IMG/VR virus record: IMGVR_UViG_3300047457_000500
Location: 32,001-96,000 of that record
Reading direction: 5' to 3' (one strand)
DNA from: a virus
DNA length: 64,000 bases
Shown here: piece after piece, positions 42,338 through 57,814 of the stretch
Layout: every line of letters begins with the position of its first letter
Numbering within the stretch: the first letter of the stretch is position 1
Translations under genes and position numbers: made by a program
The notes under the pieces: model-generated
Told to the model about the DNA's origin: nothing
What the model saw: the letters and a program-made list of their open reading frames with translations, nothing else
Database searches by the model: none

Positions 42338-42454
42338 TTAGTGCTTAGAGCAATCGTGAGTTTTGTAAACTTGGAAACCCCATACTGGGCAAACCTTGTA
42401 ATCTGCTGGGTTCACTATCATGTAATCGTTTCTGCTTTCGTAAATTGTGTTCAT
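42338..42454 (-). CDS. Hypothetical early protein (38 aa)
   Basis: MNTIYESRNDY...; SD AGAAAGGA and own promoter. Confidence 0.55.
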   Translation of the reverse strand: MNTIYESRNDYMIVNPADYKVCPVWGFQVYKTHDCSKH

Positions 42455-43328: not shown

Positions 43329-43430
43329 GCCACCTCACAAAAATAAATAAAATCTAACGGCGTGTCGCCTTGAAAATGTCAGCCAAAAATGCTAAAATTA
43401 CAGAGTAATAAAATGAAAGAAGGTAAAAAT

Positions 43431-44404: not shown

Positions 44405-44515
44405 ATGTGAATTACGTTACAATAAAAAAATTTCCCAGATTTTACGGCGTGTCGTTTTGATTTTGTCAGTCCTAGATGATAGGATTACAGAGTAATAAAA
44501 TGAAAGGAAAACTAA

Positions 44516-44781: not shown

Positions 44782-44991
44782 ATGGATAAATTGGAATACG
44801 CACTACGCACTATCGCTAATTGCGATTTGTGTTATGGTCAAGGTTATAATGGTTGGGCTATTGGCGAGGACTATGATATGGAGGATTGTATTTGTAATCC
44901 TTATGGTCTAATCCTTGAAAATGGCGAAGTTATTTTTGATAATGGCTTACTAAGTGAGCCTGAACTATTCACAACGCAGGAGGCTTACTAA
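44782..44991 (+). CDS. Small Zn-finger-like early protein
   Basis: C..C.GQG...C.CNP. Confidence 0.6.
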   Translation: MDKLEYALRTIANCDLCYGQGYNGWAIGEDYDMEDCICNPYGLILENGEVIFDNGLLSEPELFTTQEAY

Positions 44992-47074: not shown

Positions 47075-47170
47075 TCTCAAAATATGAGAAATCTCAGAAA
47101 TAACTTGACGAGAAATCTCAAAAATGCTAAAATTGAATATATCAACAACCAACTAACAAAGGAGAAAGAA

Positions 47171-47338
47171 ATGGCAGTAAATAACGCAACTTACAAGGTA
47201 GGCGACACCTACACCTCACAGAAGTCAAAGGTCACAGGTGTTATCACAGAAATCAAGCCAAACACAGACGGAACAAGCGTTCGTGTGAAACTTGATGTCA
47301 ATGGCTCACCTCGCTGGACTACTTGGACAGCAAAGTAA
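47171..47338 (+). CDS. Small SH3-like protein
   Basis: TYKVGDTYTSQKSKVTGVITEI; SD AAGGAG. Confidence 0.65.
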   Translation: MAVNNATYKVGDTYTSQKSKVTGVITEIKPNTDGTSVRVKLDVNGSPRWTTWTAK

Positions 47339-47353
47339 TTCCTAAACAGGAAA

Positions 47354-47382
47354 AGTCCTGAGCATGACTACTAAAACTGCTC
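47354..47382 (+). ncRNA. H-type pseudoknot motif, copy 1
   Basis: AGTC-CTGAGCAT-GACT-ACTAAAAC-TGCTC. Confidence 0.75.
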
Positions 47383-47418: not shown

Positions 47419-47841
47419 ATGGCACGACAAAAAGCAATTAGCGTGAAAATCGCTACAACCAAAGTTATCAAGGCTTTGGAAACTAAGTTAGCACAAATCA
47501 AGAAAGATAAGGCTAACCAAAAAACTAACGAGGAGAAGTATCAGAAGGCTCACGAAAAGTGGCTAAAAGATGTTGCTAAACTTTCTCTCGCTCAAATCTC
47601 AAAGGCAGAAAACCTACGAGCAAGCACACGCTACAATGGCATGGTAAATGTAGATTTTGATTTGCCTAAGTCTGTGGTAGCAGATTTCCCTGCTGAACCT
47701 GAAAAGGATTTTGAGACTTTTCATGAGTGGCAGTATAAGGAAATGGTTGAGGAAATTGAGAACGCAATTCGTATTCTCAAGATGACAGATGAGGAAGTAG
47801 TTTCTACTTCTACTTACAACGCTATCGCTAGATACTTGTAA
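47419..47841 (+). CDS. Hypothetical coiled-coil early protein
   Basis: 140-aa ORF, SD AAAGGA. Confidence 0.65.
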   Translation: MARQKAISVKIATTKVIKALETKLAQIKKDKANQKTNEEKYQKAHEKWLKDVAKLSLAQISKAENLRASTRYNGMVNVDFDLPKSVVADFPAEPEKDFETFHEWQYKEMVEEIENAIRILKMTDEEVVSTSTYNAIARYL

Positions 47842-47912
47842 TTTGGTTGGGGGAGGGTATTTGACTCCCCCACTAATAAATGCTATGATTAGATAATACG
47901 AAAGGATAAGCC

Positions 47913-48326
47913 ATGGAAACAACTAACATTCATAACGTCACTGAGGAATTTTTAAAAACTCAGATTACACAAAAAGATGAACGAATTCAGGTCCTGGAAG
48001 AGCATGTACAGCGTGTAACACAGCGTGACTACGCTACCGCTGGAAAACTGCAGGCAATGCGAGACGGTCTACACGAGTGGACTATGACTGAATTAGAAAA
48101 TAATGGAATCACAGAGGAGCAGGCTACTGAACTTTCTGAGATTGGTGGATTTGAACTTACAAAAGAAGTAGAGGCTGAAGTTACAGTCCGCTACTGGATT
48201 ACTCTTCAGATTCCTGCAGGAGAAGACGCAGAGTCTGTAATCAATGATATTGATTTCGACGCAATTACATATGATACTGATGTGATAACACATGTTAGTT
48301 CATCTGTAGACAGTATCGATATCTAA
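47913..48326 (+). CDS. Hypothetical acidic early protein
   Basis: 137-aa ORF with own promoter (TTGACT...TGCTATGAT). Confidence 0.65.
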   Translation: METTNIHNVTEEFLKTQITQKDERIQVLEEHVQRVTQRDYATAGKLQAMRDGLHEWTMTELENNGITEEQATELSEIGGFELTKEVEAEVTVRYWITLQIPAGEDAESVINDIDFDAITYDTDVITHVSSSVDSIDI

Positions 48327-48332
48327 CAATCT

Positions 48333-48437
48333 TCCTGGCCTTCATGAAAGGGGCCAGGATCTGCAAGCATCGCTCTTCTTTCATCCTTTCTTTCAAAGAG
48401 CATGCAAGGGACCTGAGCACGTCCACGTAAACTGCTC
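48333..48437 (+). ncRNA. Structured intergenic RNA: hairpin, anti-SD-loop hairpin and pseudoknot copy 2
   Basis: TCCTGGCC/GGCCAGGA; GCAT.GCTCTT/AAGAGCATGC with loop CTTTCATCCTTTCTTTCA; GGAC-CTGAGCAC-GTCC-ACGTAAAC-TGCTC. Confidence 0.65.
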
Positions 48438-48576
48438 ATTTTTTATTGAAAAAGTGGTCGGGCGATTTGTCCTATATGTCCGATTTACGAATTATGATCA
48501 TATTCCCCAATCCTGGATTTGCTTTTGTCACCCCATTGTGCTAAACTTTAGATAACAAAACAGAAAGGAAATAAAA

Positions 48577-49584
48577 ATGGCTCATGAATTAGAATCTGCT
48601 AATTCTTTCGCATCATTCCGTGAACCTGCTTGGCATGGTTTAGGAACTGTATTTCAGGAGGAAGTTACTACTGAAAAAATGTTGGAACTCGCTAACCTTG
48701 ATGGTTGGAATGTTCGTCTTGAAGATGTCGTAATCCCAGACACTCTTTCATCTGATAAATCTTATCAATATGTTGTGCGTGATAACCCATTCACCGCAAA
48801 TCAAGTTGATGTTCTAGGCGTTGTTGGTGAACGCTATGTCCCATTGCAAAATGAAGACCTATTCACATTTGGTGATGCAATTCTTGATGGCGGAGGTCGT
48901 TGGGAAACTGCTGGCTCATTGCGTGGTGGTCGTGTTGTATTTGGTTCTCTTGCTCTTGAGCGTGAGACTGTTCTAGACCCTAATGGCGTCGCTGATGTTG
49001 TCAAGACTTATCTTCTTGTCAACACATCACATGATGGTTCTGTTGCTATTCAAGCATCTGTAACACCTGTTCGTGTTGTATGCGCTAACACTCTTGCTGT
49101 TGCACTAGGTCGCACTAGCAAAAAGGGTGGCGTAAAACAATCATTCAAGATTCGTCACACACAATCTGCTGAGGGTAAAGTTCAACAGGCTCGTGAGGCT
49201 CTTGCTGTTGCCAATGCTTATATGGATTCATTCTCTCTAATGGCTAAGGCTATGATTGAGAAAGAAATCACAGCGCAACAATTCAATGATATTGTTCTCG
49301 CTGCGTATCCTAAGCCTGATGAAACCAAAAAGGGTGCATTGTCTAAGTGGACAACTAAGATTGACACTATCAATGACATCTATACAGGTGAATTCAATGG
49401 CATGATTGCTGGCACTGCATGGGGTGCATGGAATGCACTTACAGAAAGAATCGATTGGTATCGTGGAGGTAAGCGTGGTCTTACTGAATCAATTCTAATG
49501 GGTTCAAGTGGATTTGACCCTGCTATCACAGCAGAAAAAAATCGTTTGCTAACTATTGTTCGCAACTCTCTAGAATTGGTGTAA
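48577..49584 (+). CDS. DUF932 / TIGR03299-family phage-plasmid protein
   Basis: PAWHGLG, Y.P.QN, ETAGSL.GG, YLL..TSHDGS, TPVRVVCANTL, IRHT, GTAWGA.NA.TE. Confidence 0.85.
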   Translation: MAHELESANSFASFREPAWHGLGTVFQEEVTTEKMLELANLDGWNVRLEDVVIPDTLSSDKSYQYVVRDNPFTANQVDVLGVVGERYVPLQNEDLFTFGDAILDGGGRWETAGSLRGGRVVFGSLALERETVLDPNGVADVVKTYLLVNTSHDGSVAIQASVTPVRVVCANTLAVALGRTSKKGGVKQSFKIRHTQSAEGKVQQAREALAVANAYMDSFSLMAKAMIEKEITAQQFNDIVLAAYPKPDETKKGALSKWTTKIDTINDIYTGEFNGMIAGTAWGAWNALTERIDWYRGGKRGLTESILMGSSGFDPAITAEKNRLLTIVRNSLELV

Positions 49585-51147: not shown

Positions 51148-51507
51148 ATGGGAGCACGTTGTAACTTTATCTTTAAACAATCAGAGGACCAGGCCGTAGC
51201 GCTGTACAGCCACTGGGACGAAGACCATATGTATGAACTCCTGGCAGCAGCCCTGCAGCATGCAATGCCACGTATTCAAATGGGTGATACCCCGTATGCG
51301 ACTCGTATGGCTATCAGTTACATTATCAAGGATAGTATCTTAGATGAGACTGGATATGGAATTTATGCCTGTGACCCCTCAGACCAGGGATTCATGGACC
51401 ATCCAATCACAATAGATTTCACAGACGGTACCGTGGGCAGCGGTGAAGACTGGCACTCAATTCCTGATTTTATTTCTTATCATTCTGCTCAGTTAATTAC
51501 AAAATAA
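51148..51507 (+). CDS. Hypothetical early protein
   Basis: MG.R......LYSHW...D..YATR...GYGI; SD AGAAAGGA. Confidence 0.65.
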   Translation: MGARCNFIFKQSEDQAVALYSHWDEDHMYELLAAALQHAMPRIQMGDTPYATRMAISYIIKDSILDETGYGIYACDPSDQGFMDHPITIDFTDGTVGSGEDWHSIPDFISYHSAQLITK

Positions 51508-51514
51508 TAACTTT

Positions 51515-51562
51515 GGGGCGTAAGGTTTGGTTTATTCCTTTCGTCGTTGTGCCTTGCGCCCC
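51515..51562 (+). ncRNA. Hairpin with loop antisense to the 50100-50120 leader/RBS
   Basis: GGGGCGTAAGG/CCTTGCGCCCC stem; loop contains TTATTCCTTTCGTCGTTGT; T-run shortly after. Confidence 0.7.
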
Positions 51563-51592
51563 TCCCACTTTTTTGATAGAATAGGAGTAACT

Positions 51593-51811
51593 ATGACTAC
51601 ACGCAGACACAGACTAACTGACGAGGAACGAGTTGCCATGCGCCTTGCCACTTTAGTATCTGACTTGCGACTTGACATCGAGCAGGTTGGGCAGTATTTA
51701 GCGCAGGTAGCACCAACAGTATCGTATAATAGACTTATCACAATCGCAGAAAGCGCACAACATCACAAAGAGGAGAAATACAATGAGCAATACCAATACA
51801 GACTTTTCTAG
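51593..51811 (+). CDS. Hypothetical protein
   Basis: ORF, SD AGGAG. Confidence 0.6.
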   Translation: MTTRRHRLTDEERVAMRLATLVSDLRLDIEQVGQYLAQVAPTVSYNRLITIAESAQHHKEEKYNEQYQYRLF

Positions 51812-57034: not shown

Positions 57035-57108
57035 GGAGCAGTAGCCAAGTTGGTCAAGGCCCCGAACTCATAATTCGGCTATCGTAGGTTCGAGTCCTAC
57101 CTGCTCTA
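57035..57108 (+). tRNA. tRNA with CAT anticodon (Met elongator or Ile2)
   Basis: Cloverleaf; CCGAA-CTCATAA-TTCGG; GGTTCGAGTCC. Confidence 0.85.
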
Positions 57109-57111
57109 CAA

Positions 57112-57273
57112 GGCTCATCAGGAATTCGACCTCTCGATGAGTACAACTGCCCTGAAACCAGCCTGGTGGTAGTCGTTGGATAACCTGTGTCGAACAGGCC
57201 CAAGCAGACAGCATCTAAGGAGCAGAGCCAGTAGTTATATTCGCCGTAAAAACGGGTAGCGTGACTGGCACCC
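57112..57273 (+). ncRNA. Unassigned structured RNA inside tRNA cluster
   Basis: GC-richer than flanks, with several stems (GCTCATC/GATGAGT, CCTGT/ACAGG, GCCAGT/ACTGGC, CCGT/ACGG). Confidence 0.5.
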
Positions 57274-57275
57274 AA

Positions 57276-57348
57276 GCCCTTGTAGCCCAGTGGTAGAGGC
57301 ACACGACTTAAAATCGTGCAAGCGTTGGTTCGAATCCAACCAGGGGTA
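57276..57348 (+). tRNA. tRNA-Leu(TAA), short variable loop
   Basis: CACGA-CTTAAAA-TCGTG; GGTTCGAATCC. Confidence 0.9.
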
Positions 57349-57349
57349 C

Positions 57350-57426
57350 GCATCTGTAACTCAGTTGGTTAGAGTACCCGCCTTATATGCGGAGAGCCGA
57401 AGGTTCAAGTCCTTCCAGATGTACCA
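57350..57426 (+). tRNA. tRNA-Ile(TAT)
   Basis: CCGC-CTTATAT-GCGG; GGTTCAAGTCC; encoded CCA. Confidence 0.8.
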
Positions 57427-57427
57427 G

Positions 57428-57499
57428 ACCTCTGTAACTCAGCGGAAGAGTAGCGGACTTCTAATCCGTTTGTCGCAGGTTCGATTCCTGCCAGGGGTG
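57428..57499 (+). tRNA. tRNA-Arg(TCT)
   Basis: GCGGA-CTTCTAA-TCCGT; GGTTCGATTCC. Confidence 0.9.
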
Positions 57500-57515
57500 C
57501 TACAATTAAGTACTT

Positions 57516-57591
57516 TGGTCTGTAGTTCAGTTGGTAGAACACTCGACTGTTAATCGAGATGTCGCAGGATCGAGACCTGCCAGACCAGCCA
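57516..57591 (+). tRNA. tRNA-Asn(GTT)
   Basis: CTCGA-CTGTTAA-TCGAG; atypical T-loop ATCGAGA; encoded CCA. Confidence 0.85.
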
Positions 57592-57592
57592 A

Positions 57593-57666
57593 GGTCCGTT
57601 AGTTCAGTTGGTTAGAACGCTACCCTGTCACGGTAGAGGTCGTCGGTTCAAGTCCGATACGGATCG
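57593..57666 (+). tRNA. tRNA-Asp(GTC)
   Basis: CTACC-CTGTCAC-GGTAG; GGTTCAAGTCC. Confidence 0.9.
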
Positions 57667-57667
57667 C

Positions 57668-57738
57668 TGGAACATAGTGTAGTGGTAGCACAACGGATTC
57701 CAAACCCGTTAGTGTGGGTTCGATTCCTACTGTTCCTG
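57668..57738 (+). tRNA. tRNA-Trp(CCA)
   Basis: ACGG.-TTCCAAA-.CCGT; GGTTCGATTCC; 1:72 mismatch. Confidence 0.85.
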
Positions 57739-57742
57739 CAAT

Positions 57743-57814
57743 GGCACTATCGTCTATCGGTTAGGACATCGCCCTTTCACGGCGGAAAGACGGGTTCGAT
57801 TCCCGTTAGTGCTG
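57743..57814 (+). tRNA. tRNA-Glu(TTC)
   Basis: TCGCC-CTTTCAC-GGCGG; GGTTCGATTCCC. Confidence 0.9.

Follow-up and report, generated by a model that had tools for sequence, protein, structure and literature searches.

RsaE/RoxS and the actinobacterial 6C RNA are small RNAs (sRNAs) of Hfq-less Gram-positive bacteria that carry C-rich loops, and these loops are thought to pair with the Shine-Dalgarno (SD) regions of mRNAs. In Staphylococcus aureus, a UCCCC motif in the 3' untranslated region (UTR) of the icaR mRNA reportedly pairs with the SD in the 5' UTR of the same mRNA. In the RNA phage MS2, a ribosome-binding site (RBS) is sequestered by long-distance pairing in the coat-replicase region, and the RegB endoribonuclease of phage T4 inactivates early mRNAs at GGAG SDs. 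Here, we describe an intergenic RNA element in a 64,000-nucleotide stretch of phage DNA (the window), which comprises bases 32001-96000 of the 123,487-bp IMG/VR record IMGVR_UViG_3300047457_000500 (rated 100% complete). The element begins at position 48333 of the window and precedes a gene of the DUF932 family. An earlier note, made from the sequence alone, had proposed that this region specifies a stable sRNA of ~105 nt that mimics the tail of 16S rRNA. The structure, conservation, strand and position of the element are established by the analysis below, and we tentatively favour, at somewhat less than even confidence, the reading that its second hairpin is an anti-SD hairpin carried on a longer transcript, which would pair with SDs of the GAAAGGA type in the surrounding early genes.

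Structure of the element

The three parts that the earlier note had described, namely a hairpin, a looped stem and a pseudoknot, were all found where it had placed them.

48333-48359, plus strand: hairpin H1 (predicted fold), 8-10 bp stem, 11-nt loop UUCAUGAAAGG, SD-like and purine-rich
48367-48405, plus strand: hairpin H2 (predicted fold), 10 bp with a 1-nt bulge (C48371) and an 18-nt pyrimidine loop
48378-48395, plus strand: H2 loop CUUUCAUCCUUUCUUUCA, with the core UCCUUUCU at 48384-48391
48409-48438, plus strand: H-type pseudoknot, copy 2 of the 4 in the window, loop 3 being ACGUAAAC

The minimum free energy fold of the element consists of three hairpins (-35.7 kcal/mol, z = -2.57) and was equalled by none of 200 shuffled sequences. 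The loop of the third hairpin (48414-48438) pairs back to 48409-48412, which turns it into an H-type pseudoknot, with a stem 1 of GGAC/GUCC (48409-48412 with 48421-48424) and a stem 2 of UGAGCA/UGCUCA (48414-48419 with 48433-48438). The fold of the minus strand is nearly as stable as that of the plus strand. H2 displays an invariant anti-SD tract, (A/U)U(C/U)CCUUUCU, and its loop, which has no CCUCC core and no run of more than two C, is the same as the 16S-tail motif over UCCUUUCU, CCUUUCU being the extreme 3' tip. The tail motif used for this comparison is the actinobacterial one quoted in the earlier note, which we take to represent the 16S rRNA of the presumed host. The window contains the 11-mer ATCCTTTCTTT at three places (42461, plus; 44765, minus; 48383, plus), against an expectation of 0.09, and none of 100 shuffles reached three. 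As the earlier note had pointed out, the remaining two copies are reverse complements of RBSs, namely those of a 69-aa gene at 44782 and of a 38-aa minus-strand open reading frame (ORF) at 42454. This ORF (42338-42454, minus strand) has the strong RBS AAAGAAAGGAU at 6 nt from an AUG and may be a real small gene, although the overlap-filtered gene list used here does not include it.

A scan of the whole window with Rfam 15 at the gathering thresholds matched only 8 tRNAs, and the same library on 48200-48700 with E values up to 10 gave 4 weak hits, all well under the cut-off.

Conservation and covariation of the element

A protein-anchored search with the DUF932 gene gave 281 related viral loci, 80 of them retained for the analysis, and a search with the gene upstream of the element gave 24 further loci. 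In the closer relatives, the 300 nt before the DUF932 start contain the same three-part element, with identical loops and differing stems. A specific pattern (the loop 8-mer, a gap and two conserved pseudoknot words) retrieved 47 viral and 93 metagenomic stretches. Two looser scans were also made; among the matches listed, the one with the loop 15-mer gave mostly chance matches, with the element in 7 of 116 loci, and the one with the loop 8-mer plus a pseudoknot 8-mer was swamped by chance. The resulting collection comprises 160 instances with 85 distinct sequences, or 80 after trimming, and apart from a few singletons these 80 fall into three groups, which we named classes A, B and C. Class A (n=57, including the window) has the H1 loop UCAUGAAAGG and an H2 loop that starts CUUUCAUCCUUUCUU. 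Class B has a different H1, with the loop GCAAUGAAAUG, and the H2 loop GUUCAUCCUUUCUUUCU or UUUUAUCCUUUCUUUCU, while the H2 loop of class C is UUCUUAUUCCUUUCUUUU. Most class-C variants (the L353 group) have no H1 partner and yet keep UUCCUUUCUUU; three other members (L366, L373 and L380) have an upstream hairpin with a GGGG loop.

In a MAFFT alignment of the 57 distinct class-A sequences (A1), the structure given above pairs 98.8% of 1534 cells, and shifting the 3' partners by 1-3 columns brings this down to 41.7% or less. Changes on both sides of the pair were observed in 7 of the 8 H1 pairs and 9 of the 10 H2 pairs (17 of the 27 pairs tested overall), and the covariation score of A1 was reached by none of 500 shuffles. 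The alignment contains 23 G-U cells versus 5 A-C cells, which indicates that the folded strand is the plus strand, the same as that of the flanking genes. The UGAAAG of the H1 loop is invariant across the 57 class-A variants, as is the H2 loop. Among all 80 distinct variants, the pyrimidine tract lies within a hairpin loop in 79, on 40 different stem pairs. The protein-anchored loci have the H2 motif in 15 of 66 unique upstream regions, and the loop is kept in all 15; by eye, CCUUUCU is also kept in the protein-anchored variants L018 and L026. The earlier note had made its proposal depend on a conserved and accessible loop, and what we observe is an exposed, invariant pyrimidine loop on covarying plus-strand stems.

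Complementarity of the H2 loop to Shine-Dalgarno sequences

The genes on either side of the element and their signals are as follows.

47861-47889, plus strand: promoter-like site of the upstream gene, TTGACT-17-TATGAT
47913-48326, plus strand: upstream gene, 137 aa, no family; RBS GAAAGGAU at 47900-47907
48519-48547, plus strand: promoter-like site of the DUF932 gene, 3' of the element; TTGCTT, 17 nt, TGn-TAAACT (c at n in the window)
48562-48569, plus strand: SD of the DUF932 gene, AGAAAGGA, exact complement of loop positions 48384-48391
48577-49584, plus strand: DUF932 gene, 335 aa (Pfam DUF932, E = 1.5e-46)

The duplex of the H2 loop with the DUF932 SD has a predicted energy of -10.4 kcal/mol, and when both are placed on one RNA, 48384-48391 pairs with 48562-48569 in the nested ensemble at P = 0.71-0.94. 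Across 74 unique relatives, the mean P of this pairing was 0.35, and it exceeded 0.5 in 36% of them versus 3% with the start region shuffled, in a test that restates the complementarity of loop and SD and nothing further. In every class, AGAAAG(G) is kept opposite the loop in the DUF932 start region; in class C, the predicted pairing extends over 10-12 bp in some variants (-12.7 and -13.6 kcal/mol) and 8-10 bp in others (-7.6 to -11.3 kcal/mol). Upstream genes of class A have, with few exceptions, the start region GGAAAGGAU(A/G)U, which is complementary to 9-10 nt of the loop in nearly all of the 52 loop/start-region pairs listed, with predicted energies of -11 to -15.7 kcal/mol and of -10.7 kcal/mol in the window. 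The upstream genes of classes B and C are different small genes with SDs of the GGAG type, and only in these two classes are the upstream genes clearly different. For class A, too, we had considered that the element and DUF932 travel together whatever gene lies upstream; this argument was dropped because many of the 83 upstream genes that tblastn did not recognise share C-terminal features and may be diverged homologues.

The SD type that matches the loop is not evenly distributed. GAAAGGA precedes 7 of the 38 predicted genes in the plus-strand block at 42.4-64 kb versus 1 of 155 genes elsewhere, and GAAAGG precedes 9 of the 38 versus 7 of the 155, all 9 lying within 43.7-51.2 kb; the gene calls come from a simple ORF heuristic that chooses starts by SD strength, so that SD counts are inflated everywhere. 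The earlier note had stated that the UCCUUUC core matches most early RBSs, and these counts reduce that statement to an enriched subset of the block genes and no majority. SDs of the GGAG(G) type are commoner outside the plus-strand block, and the loop, having no CCUCC, would spare them. In the protein-anchored loci, GAAAGGA was found in 48 of 141 unique neighbour start regions at 18 H2-bearing loci versus 68 of 522 at 62 H2-lacking loci, a 2.6-fold difference counted with the DUF932 gene and the gene just upstream of the element left out. In the DUF932 start region itself, the split by SD type was 68 to 12 where H2 is present and 18 to 38 where it is lacking. On the plus strand of 42.5-64 kb, CCTTTC occurs 5 times versus ~4 expected by composition and is thus neither depleted nor enriched.

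The H2 loop has a further possible partner within the element. Its 5' half, CUUUCAU, is a 7-nt complement of AUGAAAG in the H1 loop (predicted energy -6.8 kcal/mol), a partner that the earlier note had not considered, and in class B a loop-loop pairing of 5-6 bp is kept through wobble changes in 7 of 8 variants, as judged by eye. Both loops are invariant in class A, and covariation therefore cannot prove that they kiss.

A second intergenic hairpin with an anti-SD-like loop was observed at 51516-51563 on the plus strand, between a gene ending at 51507 and a gene starting at 51593. It has a GC-rich stem of 12 bp (GGGGCGUAAGGU/GCCUUGCGCCCC) and a 24-nt loop containing UAUUCCUUUCGU, and it is followed by UCCCACUUUUUU. 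Its relatives (L108 and L332 groups) keep UUCCUUUC in the loop, while the stems have changed and the loops are otherwise different.

Genomic context and transcription

The element starts 6 nt past the stop codon of the upstream gene, and its place before DUF932 is nearly constant. In 127 of 133 instances retrieved by pattern only, a DUF932 homologue starts 115-186 nt (median 142) after the pseudoknot of the H2-plus-pseudoknot unit; of the other 6, 4 have too little downstream DNA and 2 have no DUF932, one of these being a false positive. The promoter-like site in front of DUF932 keeps its hexamers and 17-nt spacing among relatives, while the spacer sequence varies; it scores 8/12, and the promoter scan listed only sites of at least 9/12. 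At that threshold, the scan found no plus-strand promoter-like site in 47889-49514. No conserved -35/-10 pair was found upstream of H1 in 59 variants, in which the preceding 75 nt are coding and variable, and the U-tract that follows the pseudoknot in the window is not conserved among relatives. Between the pseudoknot and the DUF932 promoter-like site lies a conserved block (48447-48500, plus strand) of the form AAAAAGUGGUCGG(G/C)C.(A/U)UUUGUCC...AUGUCCG(A/U)UUUACG, in which a CCG(A/T)TTT word is repeated ~19 nt apart, and TTTACG/TGTC words like those of the block are found again at 43339-43419 and 44426-44506 (repeat family D9).

The RNA-library contigs X16 (48162-48359) and X17 (48248-48398) bridge the upstream gene and the element without mismatch, which fits co-transcription of the two, with carry-over of DNA being possible. 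Word depth over 48314-48414 in the four RNA runs was 15.2, 6.4, 2.0 and 1.2 (X15-X18), figures that as contig depth cannot rank expression, and the bin 48516-48616 was uncovered in all four runs, a kind of contig gap that cannot place RNA ends. The ~105-nt sRNA of the earlier note is not borne out by these data, as neither a dedicated promoter nor a conserved terminator was found and the RNA contigs run in from the upstream gene. RNA-library contigs of relatives also pile up over the genes at 47084-47338 and 47419-47841, with a word depth of ~5000 in the bin 47708-47808 (X15). High expression or high conservation of these early genes may be the cause, and contig depth cannot rank them. For the DUF932 family, a literature search gave no functional study among the papers listed.

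A pseudoknot at gene ends

The pseudoknot is not confined to the element. The window contains three other copies.

47354-47382, plus strand: pseudoknot copy 1, stem 1 AGUC/GACU; preceded by a small hairpin UUCCUaaaCAGGAA, 36 nt ahead of the next start codon
49592-49618, plus strand: pseudoknot copy 3, stem 1 ACUC/GAGU; directly 3' of the DUF932 stop codon
59969-59995, plus strand: pseudoknot copy 4, stem 1 CCAC/GUGG; after a gene 10 kb away

All four copies are on the sense strand just past a stop codon, and their stems 1 differ and yet are complementary. In the related loci that were fetched, we found 221 distinct pseudoknot cores (761 instances). Stem 1 in its fixed register is paired at all 4 of 4 positions in 171 of the 221 cores, in 33 variants, whereas at most 3 cores pair when the register is slid. 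Stem 2 has the U-G variants UGAGUA/UGCUC in 37 cores, and in distant relatives it is fully compensated, for example as UGGCCA/UGGCC or UGGACA/UGUCC. The copy at 48409-48438 fits the motif of this clade, with stem 1 in the fixed register, the UGAGCA/UGCUCA stem 2 and a loop 3 ending in AAAC. A T-rich tail follows the core in only 42 of the 221, and while in the window UGCUCA is followed by UUUUUU, the relatives L004 and L009 have no U-run. Because such a tail is rare, and because copy 1 lies 36 nt from a start codon without room for a promoter, we conclude that the pseudoknot is an RNA motif common to gene ends in this phage clade and probably no terminator of the conventional kind. The preQ1-I riboswitch, likewise a small H-type pseudoknot with an A-rich loop 3, had no match to its model in 48200-48700 at E values up to 10, and the pseudoknot here differs from it in architecture, with a stem 2 of 6 bp and a loop 2 of 1 nt. 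A literature search on pseudoknots, actinophages and intergenic regions, covering titles and the beginnings of abstracts, gave nothing relevant among the matches listed.

Distant relatives that lack H2 (L021, L023, L030, L092-L095 and others) have at the same place a hairpin with a G-rich loop, UAGUAGGGGGCUACUA or GAUAGGGGGCUAUC, which overlaps the upstream stop codon and is followed by one or two pseudoknots; where these are in tandem, the first copy is degenerate, GACCUGUCACAUGUCUUUAAACUGGAUAA. In addition, in contigs from two RNA libraries, 47843 is followed by 3-4 other letters and then directly by 49593, the junction falling at a pseudoknot copy. This junction, in a relative, indicates that the upstream gene, the element and DUF932 are present or absent as one cassette, and the pseudoknots may serve as module boundaries for recombination.

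Source and host of the phage

The DNA runs containing the stretch are freshwater or lake metagenomes. The GC content of the window is 30-43%, and a collection of cultured phages held no DNA near-identical to it. A search with the DUF932 protein matched 551 records, mostly of actinophages (Mycobacterium 197, Streptomyces 116, Microbacterium 58, Arthrobacter 50 and Gordonia 35). Judged by this protein, its best cultured relatives are BE-type phages of Streptomyces (51-55% identity). This resemblance and the freshwater source of the runs make an actinobacterial host plausible. One of the Streptomyces phages, Jay2Jay, has an ordinary GC hairpin and a U-run before its DUF932 homologue, with no H2 and no pseudoknot. 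When bacterial genomes were scanned with the pseudoknot pattern, stem 1 was complementary in 3 of the 120 stretches listed, which is about the level of chance, so that the scan names no host and gives no evidence for a cellular homologue. The plus-strand block of the window also contains a cluster of 8 tRNA genes (57035-57814, plus strand).

Possible roles of the element

The reading that we tentatively favour would make H1, H2 and the pseudoknot a cis-encoded plus-strand module that forms the 3' part of the upstream-gene transcript or of a read-through RNA. H2 would be a hairpin added to the generic pseudoknot, and the anti-SD tract that it presents would pair with SDs of the GAAAGGA type in the early block around it and lower their translation. 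The DUF932 gene, 140-190 nt downstream, would be the first target, and in the class of the window the upstream gene would be a target as well; pairing could take place in cis, within a read-through RNA, or in trans once the RNA has been processed. AUGAAAG in the H1 loop would act as an internal SD mimic that pairs with the 5' half of the H2 loop and competes with real SDs. Pairing in vivo, repression and the mode of action, cis or trans, are what we infer from sequence comparison and predicted folding. We favour this reading because all classes share the SD complement and no other part of the loop, because the element is tied to a gene whose SD matches, and because the matching SD type is concentrated around the element and tracks the presence of H2.

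Several observations weigh against it. DUF932 is separated from the element by a conserved promoter-like site, so that the main DUF932 mRNA may lack the element and action in cis needs read-through past the pseudoknot. In the nested-fold test, P was near zero in many relatives (median 0.145), although this test must open the H2 stem and therefore understates contact between loop and SD. The upstream genes of classes B and C have GGAG-type SDs, and pairing within the own mRNA is thus not universal. Any sequence resembling the 16S tail automatically complements SDs: with a threshold of -8 kcal/mol, the loop pairs with 84 of the 193 start regions in the genome, compared with a mean of 62.7 and a maximum of 97 for shuffled loops, and the DUF932 start region ranks only about 30th of the 193. 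The contrasts between H2 presence and SD type are uncorrected for shared ancestry. Because the retrieval pattern required TCCTTTCT, the invariance of that 8-mer is partly built in, while the rest of the loop and its hairpin context were not forced. Finally, kissing with H1 accounts better for the invariance of CUUUCAU, the 5' half of the loop. The earlier note's idea that the loop pairs with phage start regions has the concentration of GAAAGGA SDs around the element in its favour; genome-wide, the loop stands only modestly above shuffled loops. Overall, its interpretation is partly supported, and the silencing of host mRNAs that it gave as a possibility is conjecture.

The main rival to the anti-SD reading, possible though in our view doubtful, is that the element is a structural module of the 3' end, in which the H1/H2 kiss and the pseudoknot form a compact cap. 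The cap would protect the 3' end of the upstream mRNA or define where it lies, or else keep read-through away from the DUF932 promoter, the likeness to the 16S tail being a by-product of purine/pyrimidine loop pairing. The 7-nt loop complement between invariant class-A loops, the loop-loop pairing kept in class B and the recurrence of pseudoknots at gene ends are all as such a cap would have them; moreover, relatives lacking H2 have a hairpin with a G-rich loop and a pseudoknot in the same place, and the terminator-like hairpin at 51516-51563 likewise has an UUCCUUUC loop. However, most class-C variants keep UUCCUUUCUUU without an H1 partner, the 3' half of the loop, CCUUUCUU, is conserved though dispensable for a 7-bp kiss, and the kiss is without compensatory proof where the loops do not vary. 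The rarity of T-rich tails and the position of copy 1 also argue against a general terminator. The structural and anti-SD readings are not exclusive, and the H1 loop may be an internal competitor for the tract. It is less probable that the pyrimidine loop is a site for a protein, either ribosomal protein S1 or a phage protein, or for cleavage of the RNase E type that separates transcription units. S1 and mycobacterial RNase E prefer such pyrimidine tracts, an invariant 18-nt unpaired U/C-rich loop on covarying stems is typical of a sequence-specific ligand, and the invariant pseudoknot stem 2 and AAAC also suggest a protein partner, but this explanation accounts neither for a core that is the complement of the flanking SDs nor for an SD type that tracks the presence of H2.

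We consider it improbable that the element yields a discrete, stable RNA of ~105 nt which acts in trans as a global mimic of the 16S tail and titrates early phage and host SDs. A long open loop identical to the quoted tail motif, the enrichment of target-type SDs in the early block and the stability that compact hairpins and a pseudoknot could give are in its favour. Yet there is no promoter before H1 and no conserved terminator, X16 and X17 connect the element with the upstream gene, and the specificity of the loop is modest; a single RNA would also need to outnumber many mRNAs, and tight linkage to one gene is unexpected for a global regulator. Another reading, which we think unlikely as well, is that the element is a phage-encoded decoy of the extreme 3' tip of 16S rRNA and shuts off the translation of one SD class, with RNA alone doing what RegB does in T4. 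An accumulating, pseudoknot-capped RNA would then occupy the GAAAGGA SDs of the early block with its UCCUUUCU loop and spare the GGAG type, and the kissing of H1 with H2 would be a built-in antagonist or timer. The reading that the tract is, on the minus strand, the GAAAGGA RBS of a small gene, or that the region encodes a small plus-strand peptide, is largely refuted and has very little probability left. The minus strand does read AAAGAAAGGAUGAAAG, minus-strand ORFs of 43 and 38 aa were listed, and the two strands differ little in the stability of their folds. However, the ATG directly abuts GGA without a spacer, and the ORF that it opens varies in length (7-65 aa) and in frame among the 57 variants, so that the real minus-strand ORF that the earlier note had named as evidence against itself did not appear. 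Stem substitutions are compensatory and not codon-periodic, G-U cells outnumber A-C cells by 23 to 5, and every pseudoknot is sense-oriented after a gene. A small plus-strand ORF starting from the AUG of the H1 loop was rejected, as indels of 1-2 nt in A1 shift its frame; the same indels disrupt every plus-strand ORF.

If the loop does pair with SDs, it would, to our knowledge, be the first known phage RNA to imitate the anti-SD tip of the ribosome and thereby sort mRNAs by SD type; a search for phage anti-SD mimics in titles and the beginnings of abstracts brought up no such case among the matches listed. It would also provide a simple RNA-based timing of gene expression in very abundant uncultured freshwater phages, presumably of low-GC actinobacteria. 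Whatever their function, the element (57 to 85 distinct variants) and the pseudoknot (221 cores) are well-supported new RNA motifs absent from Rfam, and both sets are ready for seed alignment.

Comparison with known systems

Like the icaR mRNA, the phage locus has a pyrimidine anti-SD motif 3' of a stop codon, and in class A this motif complements the RBS of the same gene over 9-10 nt. Unlike in icaR, the motif lies in the loop of a covarying hairpin that is followed by a pseudoknot and preceded by a second hairpin, the link of the element to DUF932 is stronger than that to the upstream gene, and complementarity to the own mRNA is absent in classes B and C; the comparison on the phage side is one of sequences only. 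With RsaE/RoxS and 6C, the element shares an unpaired pyrimidine loop on a stable hairpin, and its presumed host belongs to the same phylum as that of 6C. In contrast to these sRNAs, the loop is U-rich (CCUUUCU) and not a C-run, and the element is phage-encoded, has no promoter of its own and carries a pseudoknot cap. No sequence or structure match to the Rfam models of 6C or RsaE/RoxS was found in 48200-48700 at E values up to 10.

The predicted pairing of an upstream RNA segment with an RBS ~180 nt downstream resembles the sequestration in MS2, although here the phage is a DNA phage and a promoter-like site lies between the partners. The likeness to T4 RegB is a functional analogy only, in that both would give an early-gene shut-off specific for one SD type; RegB is a protein nuclease, whereas the effector here would be a putative RNA decoy. 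The best score in Rfam was that of the wcaG RNA motif (RF01761), with 16.6 bits versus a gathering cut-off of 42 (E = 1.3). The wcaG motif is likewise a two-hairpin motif of phages and aquatic metagenomes, and its whole model aligned to 48327-48418, but the second stem of the model is misaligned onto the H2 loop and the element is not a member. Outside all Rfam families tested, the element is characterised by a U-rich loop that matches the tip of 16S rRNA, a pseudoknot cap, its phage origin and its fixed place before DUF932.

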